Source of the DNA: a virus
Lineage: Duplodnaviria; Caudoviricetes
Direction: 5' to 3' (one strand)
Length of the DNA stretch: 64,000 bases
Virus record (IMG/VR): IMGVR_UViG_3300035208_004923
Coordinates: 288,001-352,000 of that record
Under the pieces are notes generated by a model. It had not been told where the DNA came from. It did not search any database and was given only the letters and a program-made list of their open reading frames with translations. How positions within the stretch are numbered: position 1 is the first letter of the stretch; every line of letters starts with the position of its first letter. Below are positions 33,116 to 64,000 of the stretch, in pieces. Made by a program: the position numbers and the translations under genes.

Positions 33116-35069
33116 CTATTCCTTATTGAGAATTAAATCAATGATTGTATAAGTCATTTGATGTTTCTCTAATGTATTCAAGAAAAATTCTGTATATTTA
33201 GTATCGTGTTTTGAACGTATGATCATATCAGGAAACTTAAATTCAAAAATTGAAATTATGCATTTAATATCAATTTCATTAAACCCATATTCGTCATACG
33301 GATACCAATAGTTTGGAGCGTAATTTGCTTTTGTTAAATTATGATTTATTTCAGATTCGATAACGTCGAATTTTTCTGCAATTACTGCCCAAGACAATGG
33401 TTGCAAATCGTTTACTAAAAATTCATTTTTTGATTCCATTTATTTTTTATTTTAAGATTTTGAAACTATTTCCGAAATGTGAATATAATAATTACTCAAT
33501 TTTCGGTAAGGGTAATATAGAAAGACTATAGTTATTCAGGTAAATTCTCAGTCGTTAGACAATTCTCGGACTCACCATTATGTAATTTCAATTTTTCAGA
33601 TATTCTCTGTAGAGTTGATTCTCCATGTATTGTTTTAAATTCTTCAAAATCAGTATATCCTGTTATAATAAAACATGCTTTATATTTTGTTTTAAATGGT
33701 ACCCATGGTTCACCATTATCTGCATAATAAGCTTTTGTTGGGTCACCTGTCGGTTTTGCACAAACAAATTCAGATTCTGCTTCACTGTTACAAACTGCAT
33801 ATTTGCTTTTATCTATTTTTATTTTCGATAATTCGCCATTTCCTTCAATAACGCCAATCTGTGGTGATGGTTCACGATACCCAGGCATCATAATTAATCG
33901 TCCTGCATTTGGATCTTGTTCAATAGGTCCAAAAGATACTTGTATTGAATTTTTATCGTTTTCTTCATGATACCAAACAGGTATGCCTTCAAGTTCACCT
34001 GTTACATACATAACAGTTTTTTCTAATTGTTCTTCGGTTTTTTCCATTTTATTAATTTTTTGGTAATACGTATTTTTCTTTGAGTAATTTCAGATATGAT
34101 TCGTATTCTTCAGTTTTAACAGTTTTTCCAAAACAAATTAAGTTATCAAAATCGTATGAATATACATTACCAATGGAATACGTGCTCGGAAATGCGGATT
34201 TGATAAGTACTATCATAAACGGTGTTGCATTTTTAAATTCTTCATATTCAGAGAAAACTTCATTAAAAATGTCAGTATCAATTTCAAGATGATCATATTC
34301 TAATTGACTTAACAAATCAATATGCATAATGTCATTTGGCAATTCACCATTTATCATTCTTTCATAATCTGATTTTGCTAAAAAATAATTTGTAAGTATA
34401 GCGCTTTTTGTATTGCTATTATTCTTACCCAATATTTTAAATTCTTTATCTACAGATTCAACAACATGTGCATCTGTGCAGTCTCCATTTTCTACTAATA
34501 CATATCGTCTTAGCATTTCACCTAAAGCTGCATCATTAGGATACTTGTTTACTAAATTTACTAATTTATTCATTTTTTGATTCTTGTTAAGTTATTAAAT
34601 ACTGCAAATCTGCAATTACCGCAGCCATCATCATACATTACTAATGTGTAATCCTCCTTTGTCCAAATTGAACTTCCGAAAATGTCACCTGCATATTCGC
34701 CTGGATCATCGGAATATTCATCCTCATTCCACATTATTGTTTTTTCATCTAATGTCCAACATGCTACTTCAGTCATATCATCGAAACCTTCATATATATC
34801 TGCTCCAAAATATTCTGAAAACCATTTTTTTAATTCTGCAAATTGTTTAAGTTTTTCTTTCATGTTTAATCAATTTTAACGTCTTCTTTATAATTGCTTA
34901 TCATTCTTGATAAAAATTCTTTTGATTTTTCGACTTTTTCGATTTCATCAAGTTTATCTTGCTTTTTCTTTTTAAATTCCCACCAATGTCTTTTTGGTAA
35001 TCCAATAGGAATTTTTATGCGTAATACTTTTTCGCCATTTTCGTTTACGCCTTCTGTGATTTCTTCCAT
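33116..35069 (-). other. Hypothetical CDS 33116-33439, 33532-34047, 34052-34573, 34570-34863, 34866-35069
   Basis: Packed ORFs. Confidence 0.6.
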
Positions 35070-38946: not shown

Positions 38947-39960
38947 TTATTCCTTGTGAAACATGTAGTTTTCGCTTTTCGGCGTTGTGTCATTAAAATA
39001 TCCAGTGTATTCTTTACCGCCGTACGTAAATGAATAATTCTTTCCAGTTTTTATTGATAAACTACGTGCAATGGATTTATCTAAAAGAAACGTATTATAT
39101 TTTGACCATGGAAATACATATTTCGATAATTCAGATTCAGGACCATAATTTTCAGAAACAAACTCATCCCAAGTTGGTATTAGATTTTTCTTAATTGGAT
39201 TTGCTGATTCTTCTTTTGCAAATGGCTCTTTAAAATCAATTACACCTTTTTCTAAATCATCTATTGCACCCGGTGCTTTTGCAGGCTGTGGCATATAAAC
39301 TCTGTCAGGTGCATCTTTAATTGGTTGATTTGATTTTCTCAACAATAAAACATTATTCCACATGTAATCTGCAAGTTCATCTTTACTTTTTGTGTATGCA
39401 TCCAAAACAGTTTCCGTTACGTTTTTCTTTACGTATGATTTAAACGCTTCTTCAGACATGTCATAAAGATTTGTTCCTTCAGGTGACGACGTTGGTATTT
39501 TATTTGAATTTGCAGCAATTGCGAGTTGAATAATTTTTAATGCTTCAATAGGTTCAACATTTATTTTCATATCGTTAACAATAACTCTAGTATTAGGATT
39601 AACAATATATGCTTCAACCCATCGGTGATGGCCATCAATAATGTACTTACCGTTTAATGTAACAACTGGTGAATTATTAATTGCAGCCGCACGGCCTTTA
39701 AGCATATCATGTAAACTATCTAAAGATTTACCTGCTAATGAATGCTTAATTGACGATTCAAGTAAAAGTTGTTTTTGACAAGGTATTAAATTTCTTGCAA
39801 CAACTTCGCCTGTTGTAAATTTTATCTTTTCGTCATCTGGAAAACCATCTTCACGTCCCGATTTGATTAAAGATTTAACTTTATCCTTTGCAGCGTCATC
39901 CATTAATTGTTTGACAAATCGAGTATATCCTAATTTTACGATATTAGATAAGTATGACAT
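38947..39960 (-). CDS. ParB/Srx-like domain protein with internal leader-like motif
   Basis: PVVTLNGKYIIDGHHRW; KKNLIPTWDEFVSE near the C-terminus. Confidence 0.7.
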   Translation of the reverse strand: MSYLSNIVKLGYTRFVKQLMDDAAKDKVKSLIKSGREDGFPDDEKIKFTTGEVVARNLIPCQKQLLLESSIKHSLAGKSLDSLHDMLKGRAAAINNSPVVTLNGKYIIDGHHRWVEAYIVNPNTRVIVNDMKINVEPIEALKIIQLAIAANSNKIPTSSPEGTNLYDMSEEAFKSYVKKNVTETVLDAYTKSKDELADYMWNNVLLLRKSNQPIKDAPDRVYMPQPAKAPGAIDDLEKGVIDFKEPFAKEESANPIKKNLIPTWDEFVSENYGPESELSKYVFPWSKYNTFLLDKSIARSLSIKTGKNYSFTYGGKEYTGYFNDTTPKSENYMFHKE

Positions 39961-39972
39961 TAATTTTATTTT

Positions 39973-40254
39973 TTAAGCTTTTTCAAATCTCGATGAATTT
40001 AAAGAACGAATATCTTTTGAACTATCTTCAATTGCGTATACTCGTAAGTTACTTCCATCATATCCATCTGCAATAAAAATCTGTCCAATTGGGTATTTCT
40101 TAAATCCTGCAATTGCGGAACCTAACATTGTATGCTCACTTTTTTGGACTTCATTATATGCAGCATCTGTTAATTTTACTTTATCACCTCTTTTAAAATT
40201 AGATGAATTTGATTCATTGATGAATTCTTCGATTGTAGGTATTCTTCTTTTCAT
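39973..40254 (-). CDS. RIPT-leader protein (SH3-like cargo)
   Basis: MKRRIPTIEEFINES-NSSNFKRGDKVKL; start moved to 40254. Confidence 0.75.
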   Translation of the reverse strand: MKRRIPTIEEFINESNSSNFKRGDKVKLTDAAYNEVQKSEHTMLGSAIAGFKKYPIGQIFIADGYDGSNLRVYAIEDSSKDIRSLNSSRFEKA

Positions 40255-40544: not shown

Positions 40545-41225
40545 TTATTTTGTTAAGCTTGCGTATAATGCAGCATAGTGTTCTGCTTTTTGTTTTATTT
40601 CAGCAATACGAGTTTTCATTCTGGCTTGGTCAATTTCTTGTACGCCATTGCTAATCCAATCTGTTGTTTTTGCCTTTGTTTTTGCAATTTCTTCTGTTGG
40701 CGCTTGCACAAATTCAACAGTTCCGCCATAACCCCAACCTTTATATGGGTCAGTGTATATAAATACTTCAAACCATTTATCTTTGAATGCTTCTGGCATT
40801 TTTTCATACATATAAGATTCGATATCATTCCATCCTATCCATTTGCCATTATCATATTCCAAATCAACACTTGTTCCTGCAATTCTATCAGTTGTAATAA
40901 CTTTTATATCATTATTGCTATCTATATAAAATGTATATTTGCCATTAAATGAAGAAGGACCCCATTGTCTGTCTAGTGCTTTCGTGTAACTTTTCGATTG
41001 CAAAATTTCTGAAAACCATCCATGGCCTTTTGCTTCATTTGATACAAATTTTTTAATGATATCATATGTATCAGGACCAAATTTTATAGGACTTAATCCT
41101 TTTAAAATTTTACTTAGATACTTTATAAGTGCATTATCGACATCGGTATTTCTTGCTTCATTTAATACATTAATTTTTTGATTTTCATTAATGTATTCTT
41201 CAATCGTTGGTATTCTTCTATTCAT
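40545..41225 (-). CDS. RIPT-leader protein
   Basis: MNRRIPTIEEYINEN..VLNEA; late-type promoter at 41241. Confidence 0.75.
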   Translation of the reverse strand: MNRRIPTIEEYINENQKINVLNEARNTDVDNALIKYLSKILKGLSPIKFGPDTYDIIKKFVSNEAKGHGWFSEILQSKSYTKALDRQWGPSSFNGKYTFYIDSNNDIKVITTDRIAGTSVDLEYDNGKWIGWNDIESYMYEKMPEAFKDKWFEVFIYTDPYKGWGYGGTVEFVQAPTEEIAKTKAKTTDWISNGVQEIDQARMKTRIAEIKQKAEHYAALYASLTK

Positions 41226-41261
41226 ATAAAACTTATTTTATTATATATTCACAAATAAAAC

Positions 41262-51301: not shown

Positions 51302-52868
51302 TTAGTTAATACTTGTTGTTAATTCAATGCCGTTTTTTGCAGATTTATTGCGAATTGTGATTAAATAATCTTTAGCAATATTATAATCATCAGTTGCTTT
51401 TTTCAATTCGTTTTTGAACCATGCAGAAACATTTGATTTTAATTTTGTTCCTATCGGGACAATATACGTTTTGCCATCAATGATACTTTCAAAATATAAT
51501 TTATGGTCAGCAATGTTTATAAGTTTACCAGGATGCAGAATTATTCGTTTTGATGAATAATAACGAGGTGATAAATAAGTTTCACCAATTATTGGAGTGC
51601 CAGTAATTGATTGATTTGCAACAGGTTCAGCATATGTTGATTCGTATACAGTAACAATGCCTTTTGCAATATTTTCATCTATAAATTTGCAAGTAAAACC
51701 GTTTTCATCAACGAATTCTTTTCCTTTTGCTGAACATTTACGAACATGATATGTTTTAACACCTTTCTCGAAAATGGAATCTCGTATTTTCATTACTTTT
51801 ACGAATTTTGCAAACCTTGATATTTCTGAAATATCAAGGACTTTTCCGATTAAATTTTCACCTGTTTCCATAAATTTGTTTATCAATTAATTAAAATCAA
51901 ATATACAACATTTTTTGTGCAATAGCAATGGTTTTCTTGATTATTTTATAACGAATCAACCAAATTTCTAATGTCTTCTCTATTCTTCATAGATTCGGAC
52001 GGGTAAACTGGCGTAAACAAAATATGTAAAAATTGAATAAGAAGGATTGCAATAAGGCAACAACCGATAAATAAATCTTCCATATTATTTTAGTTTCTAA
52101 GTTTTAACATTTCTCTGCGGTGTGCAACAAATTCAGATGGTTTCATATTGTCACAATCAATATCACCATGGTAATAACTCCAGCATTCAAATGATGGTCG
52201 AATTGTTATGTATTCTTCTAATCCTTCTTTGACAAATTCATCAATTTTTGCTAGCATCAATTCCTCGTTTTTTTCGATTGCACTCGGATTATTTATTATG
52301 TTTATTTTATGGCATTCCCACGTTCCTTTTGAATGTATTAATGAATCAGCATTAATTGTTGGGTCATTTAAATGACTTGGTGCAAGATTTTTACAATCAT
52401 CAATTGCAATCATCCATCTTTGGAATTCAGATATAAGCCATTGAAGTTTTTGGAACTTATCAGAACAAAAAGTATTTGAAATTTCATTAGATAAATCCAT
52501 GAAATTGTCTTTTGAGTTAGGTTTGAATGACATTTCAAAACAAGTCCATAAAGAACCATTCAATAATCTTTTACTTGCATCGTTTTTTATGTAATCTTGT
52601 TTTCGAGTAAGAACTAATGCATTCGGTATTGAGTATTGCAAATCAATTCTGAAGTTTACTTTTGTTTTCATAATTAGCAATTTTGTTTAAAGTTAGACAT
52701 TATAACTGCAATTTCGGATAATGTATTAGATAACTCATTACATGTAAGATACTGATTAGCATCATTTACATATTCTAATTCGATTTCTTCTGCCTTTTCA
52801 ACGTCATTAAATCCACATTTGTTAAGGTCAAAATTAAAATTCCAAATTATATCTTCTGCTGTAATCAT
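51302..52868 (-). other. Hypothetical early CDS 51302-51871, 52090-52671, 52674-52868
   Basis: ORFs behind class 1 promoters. Confidence 0.55.
51891..51930 (-). promoter_or_regulatory. Class 1 early promoter repeat
   Basis: Consensus match. Confidence 0.85.
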
Positions 52869-52888
52869 GTTTTATTTTTATCAATTAA

Positions 52889-52927
52889 TTAAAATCAAAT
52901 ATACAACATTATTTAAGCAATAGCAAT
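52889..52927 (-). promoter_or_regulatory. Class 1 early promoter repeat, back-to-back with a + strand late-type promoter at 52947
   Basis: Consensus match. Confidence 0.85.
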
Positions 52928-52974
52928 TTTTTACGATACTTTTTTATGAATATATAAAATAAATTATTAATATT

Positions 52975-53214
52975 ATGGAAAGAAGAATACCAACAATTGA
53001 AGAATTTTCAGCAAAGCCAGAAGAAACTAATGAAGCTGTTGGAACTGTAGACTTACATTTCAAAGCAAAAATGTTCTGTCAAGAAGTTTTGAAATTAGGA
53101 ACAAAAAATAACTTATTTGATACTTATATGAAAAGTCATCAAATAAATCCAGATGATTTAAGCGATTTCATGGTAGCAGTTATTGAAAACATTCAAACAA
53201 ATTATTTAGTATAA
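52975..53214 (+). CDS. RIPT-leader protein
   Basis: MERRIPTIEEFSAKPEETNEA. Confidence 0.75.
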   Translation: MERRIPTIEEFSAKPEETNEAVGTVDLHFKAKMFCQEVLKLGTKNNLFDTYMKSHQINPDDLSDFMVAVIENIQTNYLV

Positions 53215-53522
53215 TGAAAAAAAGAATACCCACTTTAGATGAACACATTAATGAATCAAAATTGAATGAATTTTGCACTACTACTGTTTATAAATTCTCT
53301 GGCTCTGCTTCTCAATGGAATGAATTGCTTAAACTTTTAGATAAACTTGAGAATAAGAAAGAATTGGCATATGATTCCGAAGATTTACCGTATGGTGCAC
53401 AATCATTTGCAGTATTCGATATTTTGCCAAAAAAACCTGAGACAGTTAATTGTCATATCATAGATTTAGAAACATTAATTCCAAAAGACTTAATGAAATT
53501 TATTTCACCAATATCAAAATAA
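53214..53522 (+). CDS. RIPT-leader protein
   Basis: MKKRIPTLDEHINESKLNE. Confidence 0.75.
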   Translation: MKKRIPTLDEHINESKLNEFCTTTVYKFSGSASQWNELLKLLDKLENKKELAYDSEDLPYGAQSFAVFDILPKKPETVNCHIIDLETLIPKDLMKFISPISK

Positions 53523-53530
53523 TAAGATAA

Positions 53531-54640
53531 ATGAAAAATAGAATACCTACGTTTGATGATTTTTTATTCGAAAGAACACCAGATAAAATTCCACATCCAA
53601 AACATAAATGGTTTGAAGTTAATCCAAAAGATTATGACGATTTGGAAGATGATTTTTATAAATTGATTCAAACTGCATATAAAGATGTTCCTGGCGGTCA
53701 CTTGAAAGTTCAAAAACCAGATGACGTATTTGATGCTGGATGGACTTATTGGGTTGCAATGGATAATGATAATAATCCCGATTTTAATGTTGTGAAAGGT
53801 TATAAAGTAACACCATACGGTTATAAATCAGCAGTTGCAGGTCATGATGTTACAAAGGTATCAAAAACTGATTATCTTACTAAATTTGCTGAAGATATGA
53901 GCAAACCTGGTAAATACGCTGAGGTTTCTGAAAAACTAGCAGAAATTCTTATCAATAAATATCATGTTCATATTGTATCAAATCCCGATGCAATTAAAGC
54001 AGTACTTGGTAAAAGCGATGTTGTGTTTTATGGCAAAAATCCTGAGAATCCTTCAATGCCTGGTGATGGATGGTATACACGAAAAATTGCAGGCGGCGTT
54101 CATGCAAAAATATTAGTAGGAAAACCTATTGTACAGGAATCTGTTACAGAAGGACTTGATAACGGTAAACCTACCGTTTTAGTTCTTCACGGATATGAAT
54201 CATCAGTATATCCTCCAAGATTAAAAGTATTATCTGCAGATTATAATTTATTAACGCCTGAAATGGATTATGACCATAACCAAGGATTGTTTGAAAAAAC
54301 ATACCAAACGTATAAAAATGCAAATATTGATTTAATAGTCGGTTCATCAATGGGCGGATACTTTGGATATTATTTAGCATCATTACTTGATGTTCCTGCT
54401 TTATTATTCAATCCCGCGGTAATCGAAACAACATCAGGCATCAAAAAACAAGAAGTTCGAAAAGGCAAATATAATCCTGCAATTTATGTTGTTTCAGGCA
54501 AAGATGATGATATCGTTATTTCATGGAAACTTAAACAATGGTTTAAGGAAAACGCAAGAAACTATGAATTTATTACTGAAAACATGGGACATCGCCCTTC
54601 CGATGAAACTTATATAAAATATGTTAAAAAATATGTATAA
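53531..54640 (+). CDS. RIPT-leader protein: unknown N-domain plus YqiA-like alpha/beta hydrolase
   Basis: MKNRIPTFDDFLFER; VLHGYES, IVGSSMGG, LFNPA, GKDDDIV, MGH. Confidence 0.8.
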   Translation: MKNRIPTFDDFLFERTPDKIPHPKHKWFEVNPKDYDDLEDDFYKLIQTAYKDVPGGHLKVQKPDDVFDAGWTYWVAMDNDNNPDFNVVKGYKVTPYGYKSAVAGHDVTKVSKTDYLTKFAEDMSKPGKYAEVSEKLAEILINKYHVHIVSNPDAIKAVLGKSDVVFYGKNPENPSMPGDGWYTRKIAGGVHAKILVGKPIVQESVTEGLDNGKPTVLVLHGYESSVYPPRLKVLSADYNLLTPEMDYDHNQGLFEKTYQTYKNANIDLIVGSSMGGYFGYYLASLLDVPALLFNPAVIETTSGIKKQEVRKGKYNPAIYVVSGKDDDIVISWKLKQWFKENARNYEFITENMGHRPSDETYIKYVKKYV

Positions 54641-54992
54641 AAGAATACCAACATTTGATGAACATGTAAATGAAGGCACATGGAATAATGAAAAATATGG
54701 TTTCAGAATATCGAAATTTTTAGAACAGCATACAGGTAAAAACCTAACAGGCGAAATGAAAGTTCAAATTATTTTTAACGATTTTTTCAAAGCAAGTACT
54801 TATGAATATGCTAATAATTTATTATTGTGTTCAAGAATCGAAGGTTACATTAAATCGTATAAAATTCTTGAACATGATAGATTGATAGGCAGTTACAGAA
54901 ATATATTTATTGTAGATGTTGATGTAATTAAATGGTACGAATTTTTACGCAAACTAGATGATGGTCATTTAGATAACTTTAAAATATTATAA
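54633..54992 (+). CDS. RIPT-leader protein
   Basis: MYKRIPTFDEHVNEG; start moved to 54633. Confidence 0.75.
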   Translation: MYKRIPTFDEHVNEGTWNNEKYGFRISKFLEQHTGKNLTGEMKVQIIFNDFFKASTYEYANNLLLCSRIEGYIKSYKILEHDRLIGSYRNIFIVDVDVIKWYEFLRKLDDGHLDNFKIL

Positions 54993-54995
54993 GAA

Positions 54996-55268
54996 ATGAA
55001 AAAGAGAATACCAACATTTGATGAACATGTAAACGAAGGCATATTGCAAAGTTTTATTGATTTGTTCAAGAAAAAACCTGATGTAAGTACATGGACGCCA
55101 CCAGAATTTAAAATTGAAGCAACATTAAAAAAGATTTTAACTGACGATGGCTGGACAAACTTAGGACGTGATGAAGAAGGCCGACTAATCGGAAACAATA
55201 CAAAGTACGGCGGTAATGGATTAGATGTTATCGAAACAATGCGTGATGAAAAAAAATTAAACTTCTAA
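54996..55268 (+). CDS. RIPT-leader protein
   Basis: MKKRIPTFDEHVNEG. Confidence 0.75.
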   Translation: MKKRIPTFDEHVNEGILQSFIDLFKKKPDVSTWTPPEFKIEATLKKILTDDGWTNLGRDEEGRLIGNNTKYGGNGLDVIETMRDEKKLNF

Positions 55269-55269
55269 T

Positions 55270-56043
55270 ATGAAAACCAGAATTCCATCTTTTGATGATT
55301 TCTTATTTGAATCTAATGATAGAATCATTACATTATATCATGGGACGGCTTCTGGGAAATTATCATCTATAAAGCTTAACGGACTTGATACTAATGCAGA
55401 AACAAATCAAAAAACGCATGGCTTTAATACAAGTAATCAAATTTCATTAAGCTTTAATTATTCTGATGCATATTATTATGGTTCATTATTTGTTAAAACA
55501 AACGAACCAGTTACTGTTTTGATAATTAAACTTCCGTATTCGTATATAGCAGGAAAAGGGCTTTCGTTAAACGAAGTTCTTGTTAAACAAAATATATCAT
55601 CAAAATACATAATAGGTGCATATAAAGACAAAGATATCGTAAAATTAGATAAATTGTCAACAAATGAAACATATGTAAATCCTGATATGCTATCAACAAG
55701 TGATTTGCAACATTATAAGTCGCATTATAAAATTAACGAATCAATTGATGCCTTAGAAAAGATGGGGATCCAAGCAGATCCTGACAAACCTTCAATATTC
55801 TTATATACGATATATCGTACGCCAAGTTCCGATGAAATTAAGGAATTTGAAAATTATCCGCAACTTACAGCTGATGAAATATTGAACGGTTTTTGTTATA
55901 CATGCATTGGCAGAGGAATTACGTCAAGTAGAAATATTGCATTAATAAAAGATAGCATAAATATGCTTATTGCTGCATACCCAGATGATCCTCGATATAC
56001 TGAAGCATTAAGAATAAGCGATGAATTAAAACCTAAATTTTAA
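55270..56043 (+). CDS. RIPT-leader protein with H-Y-E type ADP-ribosyltransferase-like domain
   Basis: MKTRIPSFDDFLFES; TLYHGT....SI..NGL, ISLS.....A.YY, NEVLV...I...YI. Confidence 0.7.
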   Translation: MKTRIPSFDDFLFESNDRIITLYHGTASGKLSSIKLNGLDTNAETNQKTHGFNTSNQISLSFNYSDAYYYGSLFVKTNEPVTVLIIKLPYSYIAGKGLSLNEVLVKQNISSKYIIGAYKDKDIVKLDKLSTNETYVNPDMLSTSDLQHYKSHYKINESIDALEKMGIQADPDKPSIFLYTIYRTPSSDEIKEFENYPQLTADEILNGFCYTCIGRGITSSRNIALIKDSINMLIAAYPDDPRYTEALRISDELKPKF

Positions 56044-56246
56044 AACATTACTTCATAAATTGTTTTACCTTTTTCTGTAATTTCCCATTCGTTTTTCTCA
56101 TTGCATACAGCAAGTCCTAAATGAACCATTTTTTGCAATGCTAAAATTATATCTTCTTCAGAAATATTTTCAATAATCGGAAGCTCATGAAAGATTTTTT
56201 CTTTTATGAGCTTCGTGTATATTATGCTTACTTGTTTATCATTCAT
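56040..56246 (-). CDS. Small winged-helix-like protein
   Basis: LQKMVHLGLA...WEITEKGK. Confidence 0.55.
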   Translation of the reverse strand: MNDKQVSIIYTKLIKEKIFHELPIIENISEEDIILALQKMVHLGLAVCNEKNEWEITEKGKTIYEVMF

Positions 56247-57010
56247 ATTAATTGTCCTTTCTTATTAAATACCATGTATCTAAATTTTATGCCCGATTTT
56301 AGTACAGCAGCCATTTTTAACGCATTTATATCTTCATTTTTTTGAAATGTCCATTCTGATTTAACTTCAATTATAGTATGCAAAGACTTGATATAAATAT
56401 CTGGCACATATAAATGCTTTTTTTCATTACACACATAAAAAATATTGCCAAGTTCTTTGCGTATAGCTTTTCCTCCTATTATTATATCTTCTTCATTATA
56501 AGATAACAGCAATAATAAAATTGCTTTATTTTCGTATCCTTGCGTTTTCACAACAGCGCCTGACGGCAATATGAATTTATGCCATTTATATCGACCTCCG
56601 TAATTCAAAGCATCTGCCCTTTTTATTTTGTTCTCCTCTATACTATTGTATAATAATAATTTTTGTGATAAATTCTCTCGCCATTTTGCGTTATGTGATA
56701 CAGCTTTCATAGATTCTGAAACGCGTGCACGAAGTTCATGAGTCCATCTATTTGGATCCTTAAGATGTATTTCCATTTTTTCTTTGTACATTGGATCTTC
56801 ATATTTTTTTTTCATACTGCAATTTCGCGAACACGCAACTCTCCTATATGGCGTAAACATTTTACCGCATATCGGGCAAGCAATATCTTGCAATTTATTT
56901 TTTTGTATTCTTGCTTTGCCAATGCAAGAACGGGAACAAAATTGTGCACTTTTTTTATTTGTTTTGAATTCTTTGTTACATACCGAACAATTTTTAATAT
57001 ATGTTGTCAT
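56243..57010 (-). CDS. Putative homing endonuclease (Zn ribbons plus PD-(D/E)xK domain)
   Basis: CSVC..FCSRSC, CPIC..CSRNC; YVPDIYI...IIEVKS; late-type promoter. Confidence 0.75.
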   Translation of the reverse strand: MTTYIKNCSVCNKEFKTNKKSAQFCSRSCIGKARIQKNKLQDIACPICGKMFTPYRRVACSRNCSMKKKYEDPMYKEKMEIHLKDPNRWTHELRARVSESMKAVSHNAKWRENLSQKLLLYNSIEENKIKRADALNYGGRYKWHKFILPSGAVVKTQGYENKAILLLLLSYNEEDIIIGGKAIRKELGNIFYVCNEKKHLYVPDIYIKSLHTIIEVKSEWTFQKNEDINALKMAAVLKSGIKFRYMVFNKKGQLI

Positions 57011-57058
57011 GATTTTTATTTATATATTAAAAGATACGCATTGTTATTTTGAAGTTAT

Positions 57059-58795
57059 TTAAAATCTTACATATACACATCTATCTAAAAAATCTTGAGG
57101 AAACATATGTCTATTCTGCGTAATTAGCCTGAAAAAATCGCTATCTAGAATATACGTTGTTGCGTAATCGTTTTCATTCCTAACTGAACGACCAACACCC
57201 TGTAAGACCGACAGTATTGTAATCCATGCGTACCAATCTTTATCTGTCTTCATTTTCGCATTTACGAATTTGTCCATGAGCGATGGGTAAGGAACTTTTG
57301 CAAATATTTGAAACCGGGACTTATCATTTCCTAAATCTAATCCTTCTAATAGACTGGGACCCATTAGAACTTTATTGTTTGCACTGCTAAAATCAAATAA
57401 AACATTTTTTTTATCTGAACTATTTATGTATGAAATAATTCTATCACTTTTTATGTTTTCATTCAAGTATACACTATTTGTGTAACTTCCGGTGTGAATG
57501 ATTCCATTCTCATTTTTGTGTTTTTCTAAAATTTCTGTTATTTTATTTGCAATTTTTGGCAAAGCAACTTCTTTATTTTTAAACGACATGCTTACACCTT
57601 GATAAATTAATATTGGCGAACGGTCAAAATTGAATGTACTAGGTATTTTTCTATACTTTGCATTGTTTGCATTTATACTTTTTGCAAACAGCGTAGGTTC
57701 ACCCATCGTTGCTGTCATCATGACAGCAAAGTTATTTTTGTCATGAAAATGTTTTTTCATGAGGTATTTTTCATTGATGCAATTAAACTGTATATTTGCA
57801 CCGTTTTGGTTTTTAATCATTGCTCTAATATCAGTTGACGCAATAATTTGATTATAATCTTCAAATTTACAATGTAGATCTTTGCATTCATCGCACAAGT
57901 TTAATCCTTTTCTCCATTCTGCTGGAACTGATTTGCCAGCATATTTTCTTCCTACGAATTTTTTTATTTCATCGGCGTGTTGAACAAACGAATGAAGCAT
58001 TTTCTCAAACATTCTGTTATGAATAAACAATTTTGCATTATCGTCTTCAGCAACAATTTTATTTATGATTTCTTTCAATTCATATCCGCTATACGGAACT
58101 GCCATTGAATGTTCAGCAAGGAATCCTCGTAAACGTTCAAGCATAGGATATGTATTATCATTTACAATAGGACTAAAGTGTTTTTGTACAATGTTAACAA
58201 CTTTATGCGCCTCATCGCATATAATAAAATCACGTTCATCAAATAACGCATGAGACGAATCCGTCATTTTTTCCAATACGTAATTCATTTGTATCAAATA
58301 ATACGAATAGTTGAATATTGATGTTGGAGTAAAACTTGCGTAATCTCTTGCAAAATAATAAGGGCAGTCCTTATAACATGGTAGTTGTTTTGTTGCATTT
58401 GAATTTAAGTGCTTCATTTTACATTCACCAAGACTATGTTTTTCTTGGTTTTCTGTACAAAGATAATTATCAACACCTTTTACACTTCCAAATCCTAAAT
58501 GCAATTTCAATACGTCTTGTTCGTATTGGTCTTGTAATGCAAGATCTGATGATAGAATATATCCTTTTTTGCCGAATCTGTTTAATACATATGAGGAGCA
58601 TAATGCAATTAATGATTTACCGCTACCTGTTGGTGCGTCGATAAGATATATCTTTTTTTCTTCACCCATGCATGTTGCAACAACATCAATAATTGCTTCT
58701 TTTTGACCTGTCCTGAACTCGAAATTTGTCCACCCATGATTTTTAACGAACATGTCAATATATTCGTTTATTTTATCTTCAAGTTCTTGATTCAT
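57059..58795 (-). CDS. DinG/Rad3-like SF2 helicase
   Basis: FR.GQ, DAPTGSGKS, ICDEAH, MTAT, EGLD, KVPYP, QGVGRSVR..D. Confidence 0.9.
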   Translation of the reverse strand: MNQELEDKINEYIDMFVKNHGWTNFEFRTGQKEAIIDVVATCMGEEKKIYLIDAPTGSGKSLIALCSSYVLNRFGKKGYILSSDLALQDQYEQDVLKLHLGFGSVKGVDNYLCTENQEKHSLGECKMKHLNSNATKQLPCYKDCPYYFARDYASFTPTSIFNYSYYLIQMNYVLEKMTDSSHALFDERDFIICDEAHKVVNIVQKHFSPIVNDNTYPMLERLRGFLAEHSMAVPYSGYELKEIINKIVAEDDNAKLFIHNRMFEKMLHSFVQHADEIKKFVGRKYAGKSVPAEWRKGLNLCDECKDLHCKFEDYNQIIASTDIRAMIKNQNGANIQFNCINEKYLMKKHFHDKNNFAVMMTATMGEPTLFAKSINANNAKYRKIPSTFNFDRSPILIYQGVSMSFKNKEVALPKIANKITEILEKHKNENGIIHTGSYTNSVYLNENIKSDRIISYINSSDKKNVLFDFSSANNKVLMGPSLLEGLDLGNDKSRFQIFAKVPYPSLMDKFVNAKMKTDKDWYAWITILSVLQGVGRSVRNENDYATTYILDSDFFRLITQNRHMFPQDFLDRCVYVRF

Positions 58796-58855
58796 TATTT
58801 ATCTAATCTTTTTATGTAATATATAATTATATACATAAAGTAAAAAAAGTTTATC

Positions 58856-59296
58856 ATGAATCAACGAATACCTACGTTTGACAATTTCCTGTTTGAAGCA
58901 GGAATAAAATATGAACCTGGTTCGATTAGCGAACTATTAGCAGGACTGCGCGGTAACCAAGAGTTTTATGATTTTTGCAAAAAACATGGACATCCAAATC
59001 CACAAGCCTGGAATCCTATGGAATTTACGATGAGTTCTTGTACATTCGTTGCAAAATTTTTAGAGGAAAAAGGATTTGGTAAAGCATTATCAAGTCACGG
59101 TCCATACGGCATGGCACCACATGCTTTTGTTTTGTATAACGGATTATATTATGATTATGAAGCAAGAGAAGGCGTTAAGAATGTTTATGACTTGCCAAAC
59201 TTTCAAGATTTACGATACAATGTTAAAAAAGGTGATTCCTGGCCAAATTACAAAAAAGAAATAGTCAAAAACGTACAAAATTTTAATTTTCAATAA
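58856..59296 (+). CDS. RIPT-leader protein with possible Cys-His-Asp (papain/transglutaminase-like) triad
   Basis: MNQRIPTFDNFLFEA; SSCTFVA...PHAFVLYNGLYYD. Confidence 0.65.
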   Translation: MNQRIPTFDNFLFEAGIKYEPGSISELLAGLRGNQEFYDFCKKHGHPNPQAWNPMEFTMSSCTFVAKFLEEKGFGKALSSHGPYGMAPHAFVLYNGLYYDYEAREGVKNVYDLPNFQDLRYNVKKGDSWPNYKKEIVKNVQNFNFQ

Positions 59297-60210
59297 TGAA
59301 GCTACGAATACCAAATTTTGATGATTTTATATTTGAATCTAATTATGAATGGATTCCAATGACCGTTGCATCTGCTAAAATTGTTGCTGATGGCATGATA
59401 AAATTGTTTGCGCCAAATAGTGATGAAATTGCAAAAAACAAAAAAATTGCCGAACTTGTATTAGCTGCGCTAGAAAAGCATATTGAACGTATGAAGTATT
59501 TCGATAAATTTCCCGACTTCAAGAAATTGATTGAGGATAACGTAAAACATATAATTGCAAATGATAAACGTCATGGCATCGAACCTGAAGACCCAAACAT
59601 GGTTAAGGCATATGCAATGGAATATGCAATGGAAACAATTTACGAAAGAACAAAGGGCCAAGAATCACAAGAAGAAAAAGACAAGAAAACACAAGTTACA
59701 TTTTTCAATAAAGTTTTTAATGAAGGCGCGGCATTACGCACAAAAGCAATTACAAATGCTGGTTTGAAATTTTACAAACAGAACTTGTTTGCATTTGAGG
59801 AAATAAACAGAAAATTACGAACAGATCATTCAAAAATGAGTGAGCATGATTGGTCAGTTGCAACTGATGTAGGAAATGCAATTGACTTATTTAAAACATC
59901 AAAAGAAGTAACGGTTTTCCGTATTATTGATTCTGAAGATTTTCCATTTTCATTAAGCAAAGGAAAAAAGTTTACAGAAAAAGGAATACTGTCAACATCA
60001 TTTGACATTAATTATCTTTTAGAAAACAAAGAAAATTTTGAATCACCAGTTATATTGCAAATAGTAGTTCCGTCTGGCACTACATATTACAGATTTCCGA
60101 ATGATTTTGAATCAGAAGTAGTTTTTGATTGTGATCATGAGATTATAATAACTGATAATTCATACGAATATTTAGACACACCAATCATAAAATGCAAAAT
60201 TATAAAGTAA
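59296..60210 (+). CDS. RIPT-leader protein with R-S-E ADP-ribosyltransferase (Alt/VIP2-like) domain
   Basis: MKLRIPNFDDFIFES; Y...F.EIN.KLR, VTVFR, GILSTS, FESEVVF. Confidence 0.85.
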   Translation: MKLRIPNFDDFIFESNYEWIPMTVASAKIVADGMIKLFAPNSDEIAKNKKIAELVLAALEKHIERMKYFDKFPDFKKLIEDNVKHIIANDKRHGIEPEDPNMVKAYAMEYAMETIYERTKGQESQEEKDKKTQVTFFNKVFNEGAALRTKAITNAGLKFYKQNLFAFEEINRKLRTDHSKMSEHDWSVATDVGNAIDLFKTSKEVTVFRIIDSEDFPFSLSKGKKFTEKGILSTSFDINYLLENKENFESPVILQIVVPSGTTYYRFPNDFESEVVFDCDHEIIITDNSYEYLDTPIIKCKIIK

Positions 60211-60212
60211 CA

Positions 60213-60587
60213 ATGAATCAACGAATACCAAATTTTGATGATTTTGTTAATGAAGCAAAATCTGTTCCTAGAGAAAATACAGAACGTGAAACTGTATTAG
60301 ATTACATTATCAAAAACAAACAAGTCCGTTTAGAAAAGCTCAAGGAAATTAAAGCGCCTGAAATTATCATCACAGGAACTGAGAACCAAATACATTTATT
60401 AAAATCAGGTCAATCAAAAATTAAAGGACTTGACATTTACGGTTCTAATATTTATAAAACGTTGGAATGGAGAAAAGGCAATGGTGGAGTTGATTTCATA
60501 CAATTTGTAATGAATGATGATTCAGTTATAAATTATTTTCCAAATGCAAAATACGGAGCATTTTTCGCACCTAATACTAAAAAATAA
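60213..60587 (+). CDS. RIPT-leader protein
   Basis: MNQRIPNFDDFVNEA; start moved to 60213. Confidence 0.75.
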   Translation: MNQRIPNFDDFVNEAKSVPRENTERETVLDYIIKNKQVRLEKLKEIKAPEIIITGTENQIHLLKSGQSKIKGLDIYGSNIYKTLEWRKGNGGVDFIQFVMNDDSVINYFPNAKYGAFFAPNTKK

Positions 60588-60907
60588 TGGAAAGCTTATA
60601 TATCATAACAGACGGAGAAAAATACAAAATAGGTTATAGCAAAGACGTGGCTAATCGTAAGAGACAACTACAGACAGCAAACGGATCTTTACTGGATATT
60701 GTATTTGAATTTGAAACGGTTCATGGAATGAAATTAGAAAGATCCATTCAACGGTCAATGAAACATAAAAACATTATCGGCGAATGGTTTGATTTAGAAA
60801 AAGAAGATATTGCAAAAATAAAAGAACTTTGTATTTTGCAAGAAAAAAACTTTAACATCATAAAGAAAAATGAAACAGAGAATTCCTACGTTAGAGGACT
60901 TTATTAA
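60587..60907 (+). CDS. T5orf172/MUG113-type GIY-YIG protein (no leader)
   Basis: LYII...YKIGYS....R..QLQTAN...LE......GEWF. Confidence 0.8.
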   Translation: MESLYIITDGEKYKIGYSKDVANRKRQLQTANGSLLDIVFEFETVHGMKLERSIQRSMKHKNIIGEWFDLEKEDIAKIKELCILQEKNFNIIKKNETENSYVRGLY

Positions 60908-61325
60908 TGAATCGTCGAATGAAATTTTCACTAGTTCTGACATTATAGATTTGCAAAAAAATGGTGCAAGACCAGACGACACTTGGCAATCAATAAAATC
61001 ATCGGCAAAATTTCAAAAAATAGATAATGTTAGTATTTCAAAAATTAATTGGTCAGAAAAAAATGTTGATATTTTAAAGAAACAAGAACGCAGATTAAAC
61101 CGATTATTCGATGAAGATGATGGCACACAATACTATAAAGATGCCATTAAAAGAGAACAGTCAGAATTACAGCATATACAAAATCTTATTCAAATGGTAA
61201 AAAGCAATAAAAAATTAAATCCGATTGTTGTAGATTCAAATTATAGATTGCTTGATGGTTTTCATAGAATAGGTGCATATCAAATTGCAGGTAAAAAAAC
61301 TATTGACATATTTAAAGAAATTTGA
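60870..61325 (+). CDS. RIPT-leader protein with ParB/Srx-like domain
   Basis: MKQRIPTLEDFINES; NPIVVDSNYRLLDGFHRIGA. Confidence 0.8.
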   Translation: MKQRIPTLEDFINESSNEIFTSSDIIDLQKNGARPDDTWQSIKSSAKFQKIDNVSISKINWSEKNVDILKKQERRLNRLFDEDDGTQYYKDAIKREQSELQHIQNLIQMVKSNKKLNPIVVDSNYRLLDGFHRIGAYQIAGKKTIDIFKEI

Positions 61326-61379
61326 TAATTTTTAAATTTATACTGCATGTGCCATTACAAAGAAAAATATACATACACA

Positions 61380-62126
61380 ATGAAAAACAGAATACCAGCA
61401 TTTGATGACTTCATAGTTGAACGAGAATTTCCATTTACAGATACATCATTTGTTACACGGATTCTTACTAAATTAAAATCTCAAATTTTAGAAAAAAATT
61501 TAGGAAACCTTGAAGTTGAAACAATTTTAAATAAAGCATTTAGAAGTTTTTTAGTTTCTTTTGAAAGTAACAGTGGACAATCTGCATTTGATGATATGAC
61601 TAGAGTCGGACTGATTCAATCACGAATTGACCAAGACGGCAACATAATTGTTGATTATGCAGATTATTTTTATGAAACATTTGAAGACGAAGAATTATAT
61701 GATGAATTTGGAACAGTTCTTGCAAGAATTCTTGCGCATGAAAGAACGCATGCAGGCCAATTAGATAAAATACGAATGGGAAGAAATTCTTATGACTTTT
61801 ACAACATTTTAGGAAAAATAGGTAAAGACCCATCAAACCGTTTTAAATATTTGTCAAGCAAACAAGAAATGATGGCATTTGCGGTTGAATGCGTAGAAGA
61901 ATTCAGAGGAATGGGATATTCCGATTCTGATATTTTACGTAAAATTAAAACACCGTTTAAAGACTATCAAGAATCCAATATTTTCTATTTATACATTGAC
62001 TATTTCGATTATAGAGGTCATGTATTCGATAACGACGAAAAGGAAAGAAAAAAATGCAAAGACGTAATTGACGGATTCTTAAAATATATGTATCAATATA
62101 TAACAAAACCGAAATCTTTAGAATAA
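61380..62126 (+). CDS. RIPT-leader protein with zincin-like HExxH metallopeptidase motif
   Basis: MKNRIPAFDDFIVER; ILAHERTHAGQ...Y....QEMMAFA; start moved to 61380. Confidence 0.75.
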   Translation: MKNRIPAFDDFIVEREFPFTDTSFVTRILTKLKSQILEKNLGNLEVETILNKAFRSFLVSFESNSGQSAFDDMTRVGLIQSRIDQDGNIIVDYADYFYETFEDEELYDEFGTVLARILAHERTHAGQLDKIRMGRNSYDFYNILGKIGKDPSNRFKYLSSKQEMMAFAVECVEEFRGMGYSDSDILRKIKTPFKDYQESNIFYLYIDYFDYRGHVFDNDEKERKKCKDVIDGFLKYMYQYITKPKSLE

Positions 62127-62590
62127 TGCAATTTAAACAACTATTAAATATGAATGAAGCAAAACAAATTTGGAACAAAAAAGTGTTCCTAGGTGGCACA
62201 TGTAATGAATCTAAATGGCGTGATGAATTAATCAAAAAACTTAAGATTGACTATTTCAATCCAGTTGTTCCAGATTGGACCGAAGAATGCTATCAAGAAG
62301 AATTAAGACAACGGGAATCATGCGATTTTTGTTTGTACGTTATTACACCAAAAATGACAGGCAGTTATTCAATTGCTGAAGTAGTTGACGATTCAAATAA
62401 ACGTCCAGAAAAAACTGTTTTTTGTTTTGTTTCAACAGATGAAGATAAAGAATTCGATAAAGCACAAAACAAAAGTTTGGATAAAGTTGGCGTAATGGTT
62501 GCATCTAATGGCGGTACTTATTTGAAATCATTAGATGAAGTTGCAAACTTTTTAAACATGGAATATTACATAGAGAATAATGAAAAATAG
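62126..62590 (+). CDS. Nucleoside 2-deoxyribosyltransferase-like protein with degenerate leader
   Basis: MQFKQLLNMNEA; KVFLGGTC..S.WR..LI, YFNP, CDFCLYVITP, YSIAE. Confidence 0.75.
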   Translation: MQFKQLLNMNEAKQIWNKKVFLGGTCNESKWRDELIKKLKIDYFNPVVPDWTEECYQEELRQRESCDFCLYVITPKMTGSYSIAEVVDDSNKRPEKTVFCFVSTDEDKEFDKAQNKSLDKVGVMVASNGGTYLKSLDEVANFLNMEYYIENNEK

Positions 62591-63590
62591 AATACCTACA
62601 TTTGAATCATTTGAATTTAATGATTGCACACAATTATTTGAATTATCGAATAATAGTACTTTATATCATCATTCAATGGCAAAATTTAAAGTAGGTGATG
62701 TAATTACTTCACAGAAAAATGGTGATGGCGTTCATTGGCTTGCAAATGATCCAATGGAAATTGGATTAGAATTTTTCAGAAAAAAACATTATCCTGATAG
62801 ACCTTCACGTTTCGATTGCGTATATTCAAGCATAATCCCAAGAACGCGATTTTCAGACAAAGGATATTTATATGTAGTGCAACCAGTTGGAAGTCTTTTT
62901 ATGACAGATTCAATGATTATTGATAGCTTAGGCGATGAATTTATGAGAGAACGAATGACCCCGTATTATGAAACATTAACTATTAATGATTTCAAAAAAA
63001 ATCCAGAGGAAGCTGAAAGAATTCTTTCTTATTATTCTGCAAAAAGATATTGGGATGGCGTTAAATCGCTGCCTAGGGAAAGATGGGGCGATATTGAAGT
63101 ATTATCAAATTCCGCAATTGTGACACAGGTAATTGAAGATTCAGGAACAGTATTACGTCCAGGAATGGATGTTGTGGTTACGGAAGATAACATTATAGAT
63201 GTGACAATGACTATTTATAATCAGCACCCGAAAGAAAATGATACTCAATTATTCGATAATGAACAAATTGCAACAATGTTAAGTTATATTGAAAAACATA
63301 TCATAAACGGCAAATTTGAACAGCAATCTTATAATAAAAATGTCTATGATATTCGCGGGTATTTAAGAAAAGATGCAAAACTTAAAACTACATTTATACG
63401 TACAAATTTAGCAAAAAATGTGCATACGTATGATACCGTAAAAGGAAAGTATAGTTTAATAACATTCGATTTATACATCGATGGCCATTTATTCAAACGT
63501 GCAAATGAAGCACCGCTTTTCAGACTTGAAACAGCAATGTATTTGAAAAATAAAGCTTATGATATTGGTATGTATCTAAAGAAAGTTTAG
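62580..63590 (+). CDS. RIPT-leader protein with DUF2441-like (ART-fold) domain
   Basis: MKNRIPTFESFEFND; LYHHS, E.FR...YPDRPSRF.CVY, LYVV, YWDG...EVL. Confidence 0.7.
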   Translation: MKNRIPTFESFEFNDCTQLFELSNNSTLYHHSMAKFKVGDVITSQKNGDGVHWLANDPMEIGLEFFRKKHYPDRPSRFDCVYSSIIPRTRFSDKGYLYVVQPVGSLFMTDSMIIDSLGDEFMRERMTPYYETLTINDFKKNPEEAERILSYYSAKRYWDGVKSLPRERWGDIEVLSNSAIVTQVIEDSGTVLRPGMDVVVTEDNIIDVTMTIYNQHPKENDTQLFDNEQIATMLSYIEKHIINGKFEQQSYNKNVYDIRGYLRKDAKLKTTFIRTNLAKNVHTYDTVKGKYSLITFDLYIDGHLFKRANEAPLFRLETAMYLKNKAYDIGMYLKKV

Positions 63591-64000
63591 TAATACCAGC
63601 AGCCAAGGCATTCTTCGATTCTGTTATCAAATTCGTATAAATCAGATAACGTTTGCTCGCCTTCTGGAAATGGCTCGTTTGTTTCAATTTTTTGCAATAA
63701 ATCTTTAAGGTGTTTTACAAGATCTGTTCTAACTTTATTCGTTAGTTCTATTTCAACACTTTTTTCCATTACTTATTATCTATAATATCTTTGATTGCTT
63801 TTTTGTTTTTGATAAAGAATACCTCAACTCCATCTTCATCGTCAATCGAATCCAATAAACCTTTACGTTTTAAATTGTAAAGAAACACTGTTGACGCGCA
63901 GTTTTGTATTTCTAATAGCAATTCTTCTTCTGTAGGTTCTGTTAGATATAAACAAATAGTGCCGTCTTCGATAAAGTTTTTTAATGTCTTTTCGCCATAA
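63587..64000 (-). other. Small CDS 63587-63769 and the 3' end of a CDS (63769 to beyond 64000)
   Basis: ORF track plus manual translation of an open frame running off the window. Confidence 0.55.

Follow-up and report, generated by a model that had tools for sequence, protein, structure and literature searches.

The DNA considered here is a stretch of 64,000 nucleotides (nt) from the IMG/VR virus record IMGVR_UViG_3300035208_004923, assigned to the Duplodnaviria (Caudoviricetes). This stretch, referred to as the window, covers bases 288001-352000 of contig C1 (425,361 bp, 31% G+C), which belongs to a bin of 1.6 Mb distributed over 78 contigs. Fourteen open reading frames (ORFs) of the window begin with the same short leader peptide, probably a capsid-targeting and processing sequence comparable to that of the phage T4 internal proteins.

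The first-pass annotation had listed fourteen starts opening ORFs with M-x-x-R-I-P-x-[FIL]-[DE]-[DENS]-[FHY]. All of them are found again by ORF inspection and by a strict regular expression (R-[IVL]-P-x-Φ-[DE]-x-[FHYW], where Φ is the hydrophobic class), which returns 14 matches only in the window, every one with a Met three residues before the Arg. The annotation had also stated that the leader is mostly followed by Φ-x-Glu (ΦxE), and this tripeptide indeed stands at residues 12-14 in 12 of the 14. The exceptions are leader ORF 1, which has none at this place, and leader ORF 12, with an invariant ΦxE at residues 19-21. The leader ORFs are collected in Table 1 together with a leader-like segment located inside another ORF and two promoter-like motifs.

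Table 1. Leader ORFs and associated features of the window; an arrow marks the predicted cut, lengths are in amino acids (aa) and ART stands for ADP-ribosyltransferase.
Feature	Position	Strand	Length	Leader or sequence	Cargo or remark	Basis
Leader ORF 1	52975..53214	+	79	MERRIPTIEEF...	without ΦxE at 12-14	no Pfam family
Leader ORF 2	53214..53522	+	102	MKKRIPTLDEHINE↓S		no Pfam family
Leader ORF 3	53531..54640	+	369	MKNRIPTFDDFLFE↓R	C-terminal half alpha/beta-hydrolase (UPF0227 esterase)	Pfam
Leader ORF 4	54633..54992	+	119	MYKRIPTFDEHVNE↓G		regular expression; Pfam scanned
Leader ORF 5	54996..55268	+	90	MKKRIPTFDEHVNE↓G		regular expression; Pfam scanned
Leader ORF 6	55270..56043	+	257	MKTRIPSFDDFLFE↓S	possible H-Y-E-class ART	weak leads
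Leader ORF 7	58856..59296	+	146	MNQRIPTFDNFLFE↓A	putative Cys-His-Asp	motif only
Leader ORF 8	59296..60210	+	304	MKLRIPNFDDFIFE↓S	R-S-ExE ART domain, aa 130-304	ESM Atlas
Leader ORF 9	60213..60587	+	124	MNQRIPNFDDFVNE↓A		regular expression; Pfam scanned
Leader ORF 10	60870..61325	+	151	MKQRIPTLEDFINE↓S	DGFHR motif, ParB/Srx-like by motif only
Leader ORF 11	61380..62126	+	248	MKNRIPAFDDFIVE↓R	invariant HExxH	homologue alignment
Leader ORF 12	62580..63590	+	336	MKNRIPTFESFEFND...LFE↓LS	DUF2441 / Arr-like ART fold	homologues, Foldseek
Leader ORF 13	39973..40254	-	93	MKRRIPTIEEFINE↓S		no Pfam family
Leader ORF 14	40545..41225	-	226	MNRRIPTIEEYINE↓N		regular expression; Pfam scanned
Internal leader-like segment	39151..39192	-		KKNLIPTWDEFVSE	aa 257-270 of the ParB/Srx-like ORF 38947-39960
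Promoter-like motif	52951..52962	+		TATATAAAATAA	12 nt before the ATG of the first leader gene	genome-wide 12-mer
Variant promoter-like motif	41238..41249	-		AATATATAATAA	upstream of leader ORF 14	2 mismatches to the 12-mer

The leader array at 52975-63590 is carried by the plus strand, whereas 575 of the 623 ORFs of C1 lie on the minus strand. It is divided in two by a convergent minus-strand block (56040-58795) with a 578-aa ORF, helicase-like to judge by its sequence, a small ORF and another one of 255 aa that is rich in Cys. Two genes within the array are untagged. The first one (60587-60907, plus strand) codes for a T5orf172/MUG113 protein (GIY-YIG-like) and overlaps the start of leader ORF 10 by 38 nt, and the second one (62126-62590, plus strand) is nucleoside 2-deoxyribosyltransferase-like.

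Conservation of the leader and turnover of its cargo

A position-weight matrix of leader residues 2-14 was run over the whole 1.6-Mb assembly with a threshold of 12 bits. It gave 68 matches above 12 bits, all located on C1 and 63 of them beginning with ATG, and no match on the remaining 77 contigs (1.18 Mb of the bin). This genome-wide scan, which the first-pass annotation had suggested as a check, thus brings the number of ATG-start leaders to about 4.5 times what was seen in the window, and the 63 tagged proteins represent about 10% of the ORFs. Of the other five matches, two are one decayed stub found at both contig ends and three are internal. The presence of the same stub at both ends of C1 indicates a terminal repeat and therefore a genome of about 420.8 kb.

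The consensus leader, MKQRIPTLDEFINE (M-K-Q-R-I-P-T-L-D-E-F-I-N-E), comprises 14 residues and is usually followed by Ser. The 54 strict matches all have Met1, Arg4 and Pro6, and 53 of them have Ile5; position 8 is always L, F or I, position 11 always F, Y or H, position 12 is I, L or V in 45 and position 14 is Glu in 43. The leader ends with (I/V/L)-N-E, the Glu standing at residue 14 in 41 sequences and at residue 15 in six, and the residue after this terminal Glu is S, A, G, N or Q in 46 out of 51. Past the leader, the proteins had been said to diverge completely. An all-against-all BLASTP comparison (E<1e-3) of the 54 cargo parts agrees with this statement, as it yields 53 singleton clusters; the cargoes are thus mutually unrelated past residue 16.

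Related phages carry leaders of the same kind. In G001 (217.7 kb, capsid protein 66% identical), at least 30 ORFs start with MKQRI-x-x-(L/F)-(E/D)-x-(F/Y)-I-x-E, devoid of the Pro, and in G002 (482 kb, complete, capsid protein 58% identical), at least 93 ORFs start with MKHIKLFE-x-F-L-N-E. Each phage thus has its own leader version around a common core. The version goes with the phage and not with the cargo: the orthologue of the esterase of leader ORF 3 begins with MKQFIANFNMFLNE in G001 and with MKHIKLFEEQ in G002. Varied versions are also displayed by the nine homologues of leader ORF 12 and the eight of leader ORF 11, in all of which ΦxE is invariant, and leader ORF 1 has a homologue in G001 (52% identity) without any leader. 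Only few cargo families are common to the three phages, versus about 100 untagged proteins, which fits a rapid turnover of the cargo.

A leader profile built from the 63 N-termini was searched against 1.84 billion cluster representatives. It matches 111 proteins at E<=1e-3, of which 90 come from outside this genome, and almost all align at residue 1. A search with an exact degenerate DNA pattern added 18 contigs from at least six metagenome projects, which together hold 43 more leader ORFs, typically 2-6 in tandem; all of these differ from the leader ORFs of C1. In IMG/VR, an exact-pattern scan yielded only G001 and a fragment that hardly differs from this phage. No RIPT-type leader was found in the head regions of LR756500 and Lak-A1. 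Two ORFs of Lak-A1 (L103, MK250016; 8545-9708 on the plus strand and 33478-34527 on the minus strand) have in common the N-terminus MNKxIKxLxExLFDDxDD, with ΦxE at residues 8-10, which may be the Lak version of the leader.

Leaders are also encountered in unusual contexts. Three metagenomic proteins (P0002, P0004 and P0010) are polyprotein-like, with 2-3 leader-plus-cargo units fused in frame and a Met before each internal leader; they would be either recent fusions or cargo intended for separation by the head protease. In one homologue of leader ORF 11, an additional domain of some 115 aa separates the leader from LLE↓R. Orphan stubs, consisting of a leader, fewer than 10 codons and a stop, occur on C1 at 2169 and 422937 (minus strand), where the stub sits in the terminal repeat of the contig, as well as at L112:1246, L121:654 and L124:603. 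Stubs, fused polyproteins and the inserted domain are regarded together as footprints of recombination at the leader.

The ParB/Srx-like protein encoded at 38947-39960 (minus strand, DGHHRW motif) has no N-terminal leader, and its leader-like segment (Table 1), overlooked in the first-pass annotation, is located directly behind the ParB-like domain. Its homologues P0066 (E 2e-14) and G001 66059-66838 (39% identity) display a leader-core-like motif at the equivalent place, at or near the C-terminus. T4 Alt and gp21 undergo C-terminal processing, and by analogy this segment may be an internal or C-terminal address or a cleavage site.

At the nucleotide level, codons 6 and 9-14 of the leader use their synonyms (CCA/CCT/CCG/CCC, GAT/GAC, TTT/TTC, ATC/ATT/ATA) at genome frequencies, and the residues they encode are therefore held by selection on the peptide. 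Codon 4 is AGA in 49 of 54 leaders and codon 5 is ATA in 48 of 53, versus frequencies of 0.67 and 0.42 in codons 2-8 of other genes. This near-fixation of AGA-ATA (e.g., at 52984-52989 of the window), while later leader codons vary freely, is an extra constraint at the nucleotide level (RNA or DNA), which could come from translation initiation, a regulator site or gene conversion.

Conservation might even act mainly on the nucleic acid, the leader DNA being a translation-initiation or regulatory RNA element, or a handle for cassette recombination, and the peptide a by-product. Such an explanation would account for codons 4-5, far more uniform than codon usage predicts, and it would suit the orphan stubs, the domain insertions behind the leader and the fused polyproteins, which show recombination at this place. 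It is at odds with the amino acids being fixed at codons 6 and 9-14 while their synonymous codons follow genome frequencies, and with related phages keeping the residue-class pattern with other residues. Moreover, the upstream DNA of leader genes is not conserved, except for a promoter-like motif at array heads. Recombination at the leader is also compatible with a capsid-targeting peptide, and it is known for the internal-protein locus of T4. A conservation borne mainly by the nucleic acid is hence given only a very slight chance, and selection for capsid targeting is preferred.

Head proteins and the T4 capsid-targeting sequence

A 683-aa ORF is located outside the window, beside the largest leader array (C1 280540-282591, minus strand; L003:12540-14591). 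Residues 23-140 of its product form a Peptidase_S77 domain (PF03420, 44.8 bits versus a cut-off of 27) that aligns with the solved T4 gp21 chain 5JBL and with wild-type gp21, and 11 relatives all retain its catalytic His (GELDHP) and Ser (ISSRAAG). The remainder of the ORF is a repeat-rich coiled coil, so that protease and scaffold are one protein in this clade. All 11 aligned relatives keep the fusion, with 14-residue repeats (YSEYLAENLDKxIx) of which this phage has a degenerate form. The first-pass annotation expected scaffold or core proteins to carry the leader; this expectation failed, as the protease-scaffold protein has no N-terminal leader.

The capsid protein, encoded 32 nt downstream of the protease-scaffold ORF, belongs to the gp23 family (PF07068, 569 aa, 128.7 bits). 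Its nearest named relatives are those of an uncultured 462-kb phage (47% identity), the Prevotella Lak megaphages (40%), Tenacibaculum pT24 and Sphingomonas PAU. Leader genes stand close to these head genes, nine of them directly downstream of the capsid gene and two upstream of the protease gene. The N-terminal 43 residues of the capsid protein end with KYCH(F/Y)H(A/S/Q)LNE↓(S/A/N), invariant in 19 distinct relatives, where LNE occupies residues 41-43 and is immediately followed by a hypervariable linker. LNE↓S corresponds in position to FLTE↓AEIGG of T4 and is the predicted site of capsid maturation, with the same form as the leader end ΦNE↓S. The scaffold part of the 683-aa protein (523 aa) is rich in such sites, with 28 ΦxE versus 8.9 expected (P 2e-7) and six ΦNE versus 0.74 expected (P 1e-4).

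In T4, gp21 cuts after L/I-x-Glu, strips the 65-residue propeptide of gp23 and shreds the scaffold gp22 (PMC9026906). The T-even internal proteins are a diverse set having only the capsid-targeting sequence (CTS) in common (PMC3012670; PMC9026906). Suppressor mutagenesis of the CTS has assigned targeting mainly to residues 4 and 7, and processing to residues 8 and 10 (PMC9026906). The T4 record confirms that ipII and ipIII both begin with the CTS MKTYQEFIAE. When both peptides are aligned from the cleaved Glu, CTS residues 4, 7, 8 and 10 fall on L8, F11, I12 and E14 of the leader, which are its conserved core with the classes hydrophobic (8), aromatic (11), aliphatic (12) and Glu (14). The spacing Φ(i), Φ(i+3), Φ(i+4), E(i+6) forms one hydrophobic face of a short acidic helix. 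The leaders make up a length series, from 10 aa in T4 to 13 aa in G002 and 14 aa in this phage, too short for a homology statistic.

Both systems thus place an N-terminal tag of 10-14 residues, with the core Φ-x-(acidic)-aromatic-Φ-x-Glu, on otherwise unrelated proteins, and the positions that matter for targeting and processing in T4 are those conserved here. This phage encodes a gp21-family protease and a gp23-family capsid protein and, as in the T4 internal-protein system with its hypervariable T-even locus, the cargo is diverse, turns over fast and is encoded by genes adjoining head genes. The differences are nevertheless considerable. T4 has three internal proteins, whereas 63 proteins are tagged here and at least 93 in G002. 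Compared with the CTS, the leader has four extra N-terminal residues, an invariant Arg4 and Pro6 and the end Φ-Asn-Glu; in this phage the protease is fused to the scaffold (683 aa), the cargo is not basic, and internal, C-terminal and polyprotein copies of the leader exist in a system known from sequence alone.

The first-pass annotation had proposed a capsid-targeting propeptide like the T4 CTS. This proposal draws support from the S77 protease, the gp23-type capsid protein, the LNE↓S site, the ΦxE-rich scaffold, the leader dialects and the mapping of the CTS positions. The leader is thus likely to be a T4-type capsid-targeting and processing leader, lengthened, expanded about 20-fold and different in each phage. 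What is new here is a greatly expanded variant of the known T4 CTS.

Several points weigh against capsid targeting. Two of the 14 window leaders are without ΦxE at residues 12-14. With a median pI of 6.4 the cargo is not basic, unlike the internal proteins of T4 as the literature describes them (PMC9026906). Peptides of 10-14 residues do not allow homology with the T4 CTS to be demonstrated, and the likeness could be convergent. Lastly, the leader-core weight matrix gave no match on the scaffolds of this phage and of G001. It did so in G002 only, where the leader core matches the 14-residue repeat of the scaffold (Y-S/G-E-Y-L-A-E; YSEYLAE) nine times versus 0.13 expected, which suggests that the leader imitates a self-association unit of the scaffold; for the window this is a lead only. 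A complex prediction with the protease-scaffold alignment and an 84-aa leader protein had a score of 0.00, which gives no verdict and speaks neither for nor against binding.

The end of the leader also bears on another explanation, according to which the S77 protease recognises and removes the leader as a pro-sequence but nothing is targeted to the head, enzymes being kept inactive or marked for timed processing or degradation in the cytoplasm. The match between ΦNE↓S and the predicted capsid maturation site speaks for this explanation, and a zymogen form would be sensible for several potentially toxic cargoes (ART, peptidases). The T4 prohead protease is, however, described as active within the assembled prohead (PMC9026906). 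In addition, residues 1-11 are conserved beyond the needs of a ΦxE site, because T4 sites have almost no other determinants, and the conserved positions include both T4 targeting positions. A pro-sequence acting in the cytoplasm is consequently rated as improbable beside a capsid-targeting leader.

The phage-specific versions likewise show co-evolution of the leader with some phage or host partner but leave unsaid which one. The leader might stay on the proteins and dock them to some other partner common to all, which could be a host protein, a chaperone of the phage, a site on the tail or baseplate, or a compartment distinct from the capsid. The internal and C-terminal copies in the ParB-like family would be in line with this role. 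Such a docking function has a small chance of being the right explanation, as the leader is devoid of hydrophobic or twin-arginine features of secretion signals, leader genes cluster around head-morphogenesis genes, the leader end is shaped like the capsid LNE↓S and the overall pattern matches the T4 CTS. Capsid targeting is the reading retained below.

Other giant phages offer a partial parallel. In phiKZ, 201phi2-1 and SPN3US, a diverged homologue of gp21 processes dozens of head-internal proteins, cutting them after Glu (PMC9026906). Their ejection and inner-body proteins resemble the present system by the gp21-like cleavage, which takes place at S/A-x-E there, but these phages belong to another capsid lineage. 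Their propeptides are heterogeneous, and a shared N-terminal address peptide is not described in the review (PMC9026906). In the literature searched, papers on megaphages and on huge, jumbo and Lak phages make no mention of a capsid targeting sequence, with the exception of SPN3US papers, which deal with propeptides and no shared tag.

Cargo proteins

When 43 leader proteins were scanned against Pfam, families exceeded their cut-off in only four of them, namely UPF0227, M16 and, for one protein, 2H with Acb1, while DUF2441 stayed under it. The esterase announced for leader ORF 3 belongs to the first of them (PF05728, 30.8 bits versus a cut-off of 21), and the M16 peptidase is encoded at C1 401114-402274. 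The third one is a 2H phosphoesterase encoded at C1 267345-267902 (minus strand; L094:7345-7902), with the diverged leader MKQRIITLNEFVEQ, that attains the Pfam cut-off for 2_5_RNA_ligase2 as well as for Acb1 (anti-CBASS). This protein is a candidate for a counter-defence enzyme carried in the head.

An ADP-ribosyltransferase domain is supported in leader ORF 8, and a DUF2441/Arr-like fold in leader ORF 12. For leader ORF 8, the R-S-E ART assignment is upheld by the ESM Atlas, in which the C-terminal 175 residues have a feature score of 0.97 to PF03496 clusters with TM values of 0.74-0.82, and the sequence includes the ART motifs VFRI, LSTSF and FESEV. The hidden Markov model of PF03496 stays short of E 0.01 on this protein, and a word-index search found no sequence homologues. 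T4 Alt is a head-packaged and injected ADP-ribosyltransferase processed by gp21. Leader ORF 8 is comparable to it as an R-S-ExE ART with an N-terminal propeptide ending in ΦxE and the same head-maturation machinery, but differs by the lack of detectable sequence homology and by its size (304 aa versus 682 aa for Alt). The propeptide of T4 Alt comprises seven residues (PMC9026906).

The structural neighbours of leader ORF 8 in the ESM Atlas include fusions of ART domains with MuF, portal and minor-capsid proteins. Polymorphic toxins of this type and the so-called polyvalent proteins deliver effector domains (ART, ParB-like, peptidases) via the head, as is proposed here. In MuF, portal and minor-capsid fusions, loading is covalent, whereas a short detachable address peptide would be used here, so that each effector is a free-standing gene.

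The DUF2441 ART-like domain claimed for leader ORF 12 is likewise sustained, by PF10386 in five of nine homologues and by Foldseek matches to 2AUA (E 3e-6) and to Arr rifampin ADP-ribosyltransferases (probability 0.82-0.94), the protein itself scoring 19.2 bits against PF10386, under the cut-off of 25. In this family, E21 is invariant in the homologues and the AF2 model (pLDDT 79) is disordered over residues 1-22. In the AF2 models of two cargo families, the first 18-22 residues are outside the fold with a pLDDT below 55. The model of leader ORF 11 has a low pLDDT over residues 1-18, with a short helix at 8-12.

Other assignments hold in part. The HExxH peptidase proposed for leader ORF 11 retains H120, E121 and H124 in eight homologues, which also keep a leader version and xE↓R, but no zincin fold or Pfam family was recovered for it, and Foldseek and VIA-align gave no fold match above noise. 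For the possible H-Y-E ART of leader ORF 6, the resemblance to DarT, PARP, Arr and KptA is weak (feature score 0.84-0.85, TM 0.32-0.41), and there is no Pfam family. The ParB/Srx domain of leader ORF 10 and the Cys-His-Asp enzyme of leader ORF 7 are indicated by their motifs, with no Pfam family in either case and no solved-structure match or solved relative. Sequence searches against solved structures with leader ORFs 7, 10 and 11 and with the ParB/Srx-like ORF 38947 gave no matches.

Expression and a proposed loading pathway

On C1, the 12-mer TATATAAAATAA has 33 copies on the gene strand and two on the opposite one, at 7-14 nt from the ATG that follows. Copies stand ahead of the protease-scaffold gene, of tail-fibre-like genes and of the first gene in many leader arrays, among them that of leader ORF 1. 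The motif contains a near-copy of the T4 late promoter TATAAATA. Late-type promoters had been placed ahead of two leader clusters; the motif is present for the cluster of leader ORF 1, but the one upstream of leader ORF 14 is a two-mismatch variant.

Against late expression stand the presence of the 12-mer before GIY-YIG homing-endonuclease genes, that of one-mismatch variants before topoisomerase and RNA ligase genes, and the failure of one single-sequence query to find a homologue of the T4 late sigma factor gp55 in the genome, although such a failure is no proof of absence. Because variants of the motif also lie before replication-type genes and gp55 was not found with this single query, the leader genes are described as no more than plausibly late. 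A scan for sigma-70 promoters and terminators over 52600-63900 gave fewer promoter-like sites than shuffled sequence and was therefore uninformative.

The phage is held in landfill, groundwater or wastewater samples, and RNA-seq contigs from one wastewater study include pieces of several leader genes at 90-99% identity. They are short, of low depth and without timing, and they may derive from DNA carry-over. Two joints in these contigs (52967>62579 and 61412>60243) were considered as deletions and rejected: they fall exactly at leader starts with flanks below 30 nt, and are read as repeat-induced assembly artefacts.

A pathway can be proposed on the model of T4. Leader-gene arrays would be transcribed with the head genes from the common TATATAAAATAA promoter-like element. 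Residues 8-14 of the leader would form an acidic amphipathic helix whose hydrophobic face (L8/F11/I12) docks the pre-protein on the scaffolding core, itself presumably built by the coiled-coil C-terminal part of the 683-aa fusion. After closure of the gp23-type shell, the S77 domain would cut after ΦxE at the sites seen in the sequence, the predicted cuts being LNE43↓S in the capsid protein, many ΦxE sites in the scaffold and the position after Glu14 in each cargo. Scaffold peptides and leaders would exit the head, and the mature cargo would stay there and enter the host with the DNA, as do T4 internal proteins and Alt. The cargo set would amount to 63 proteins, mostly of unrecognised folds, including the Alt-like ART, the Arr/DUF2441-like fold, the esterase, the M16 peptidase and the Acb1-like phosphodiesterase. 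Its composition would fit host takeover and anti-defence, and the set would turn over fast via recombination at the leader. Judging from these sequences, this uncultured phage probably ships an unusually large enzyme set into the host along with its DNA.

A broader proposal, held tentatively and with slightly more doubt than confidence, extends this pathway to megaphages of the Lak-related clade. They would use a general address code, in which a phage-specific CTS version co-evolves with the fused protease and scaffold and brings into each head 60-100 different free-standing proteins, equal to 10-14% of the proteome, including polyproteins cut at internal leaders and proteins with internal or C-terminal leaders. 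If such a code is true, the leader alone would computationally flag thousands of injected host-takeover or anti-defence effectors among phage genes of unknown function. The phage-specific versions would also represent a natural experiment on how the scaffolding core recognises its cargo, a question that T4 has not settled, and could be used as orthogonal protein-loading tags for engineered laboratory phages.

If capsid targeting is true, dozens of proteins without a Pfam family would gain a known destination in each genome. Metagenomes could then be mined by a simple sequence criterion for injected effectors and counter-defence enzymes, the candidates here including the Alt-like ART, the Arr-like fold and the Acb1-like phosphodiesterase. 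The injected proteome would be about 20 times more diverse than that of T4. Should the tag function like that of T4, roughly a tenth of the genes in these giant phages would code for virion-carried proteins, and the carried proteins would act in the host ahead of any phage gene expression.

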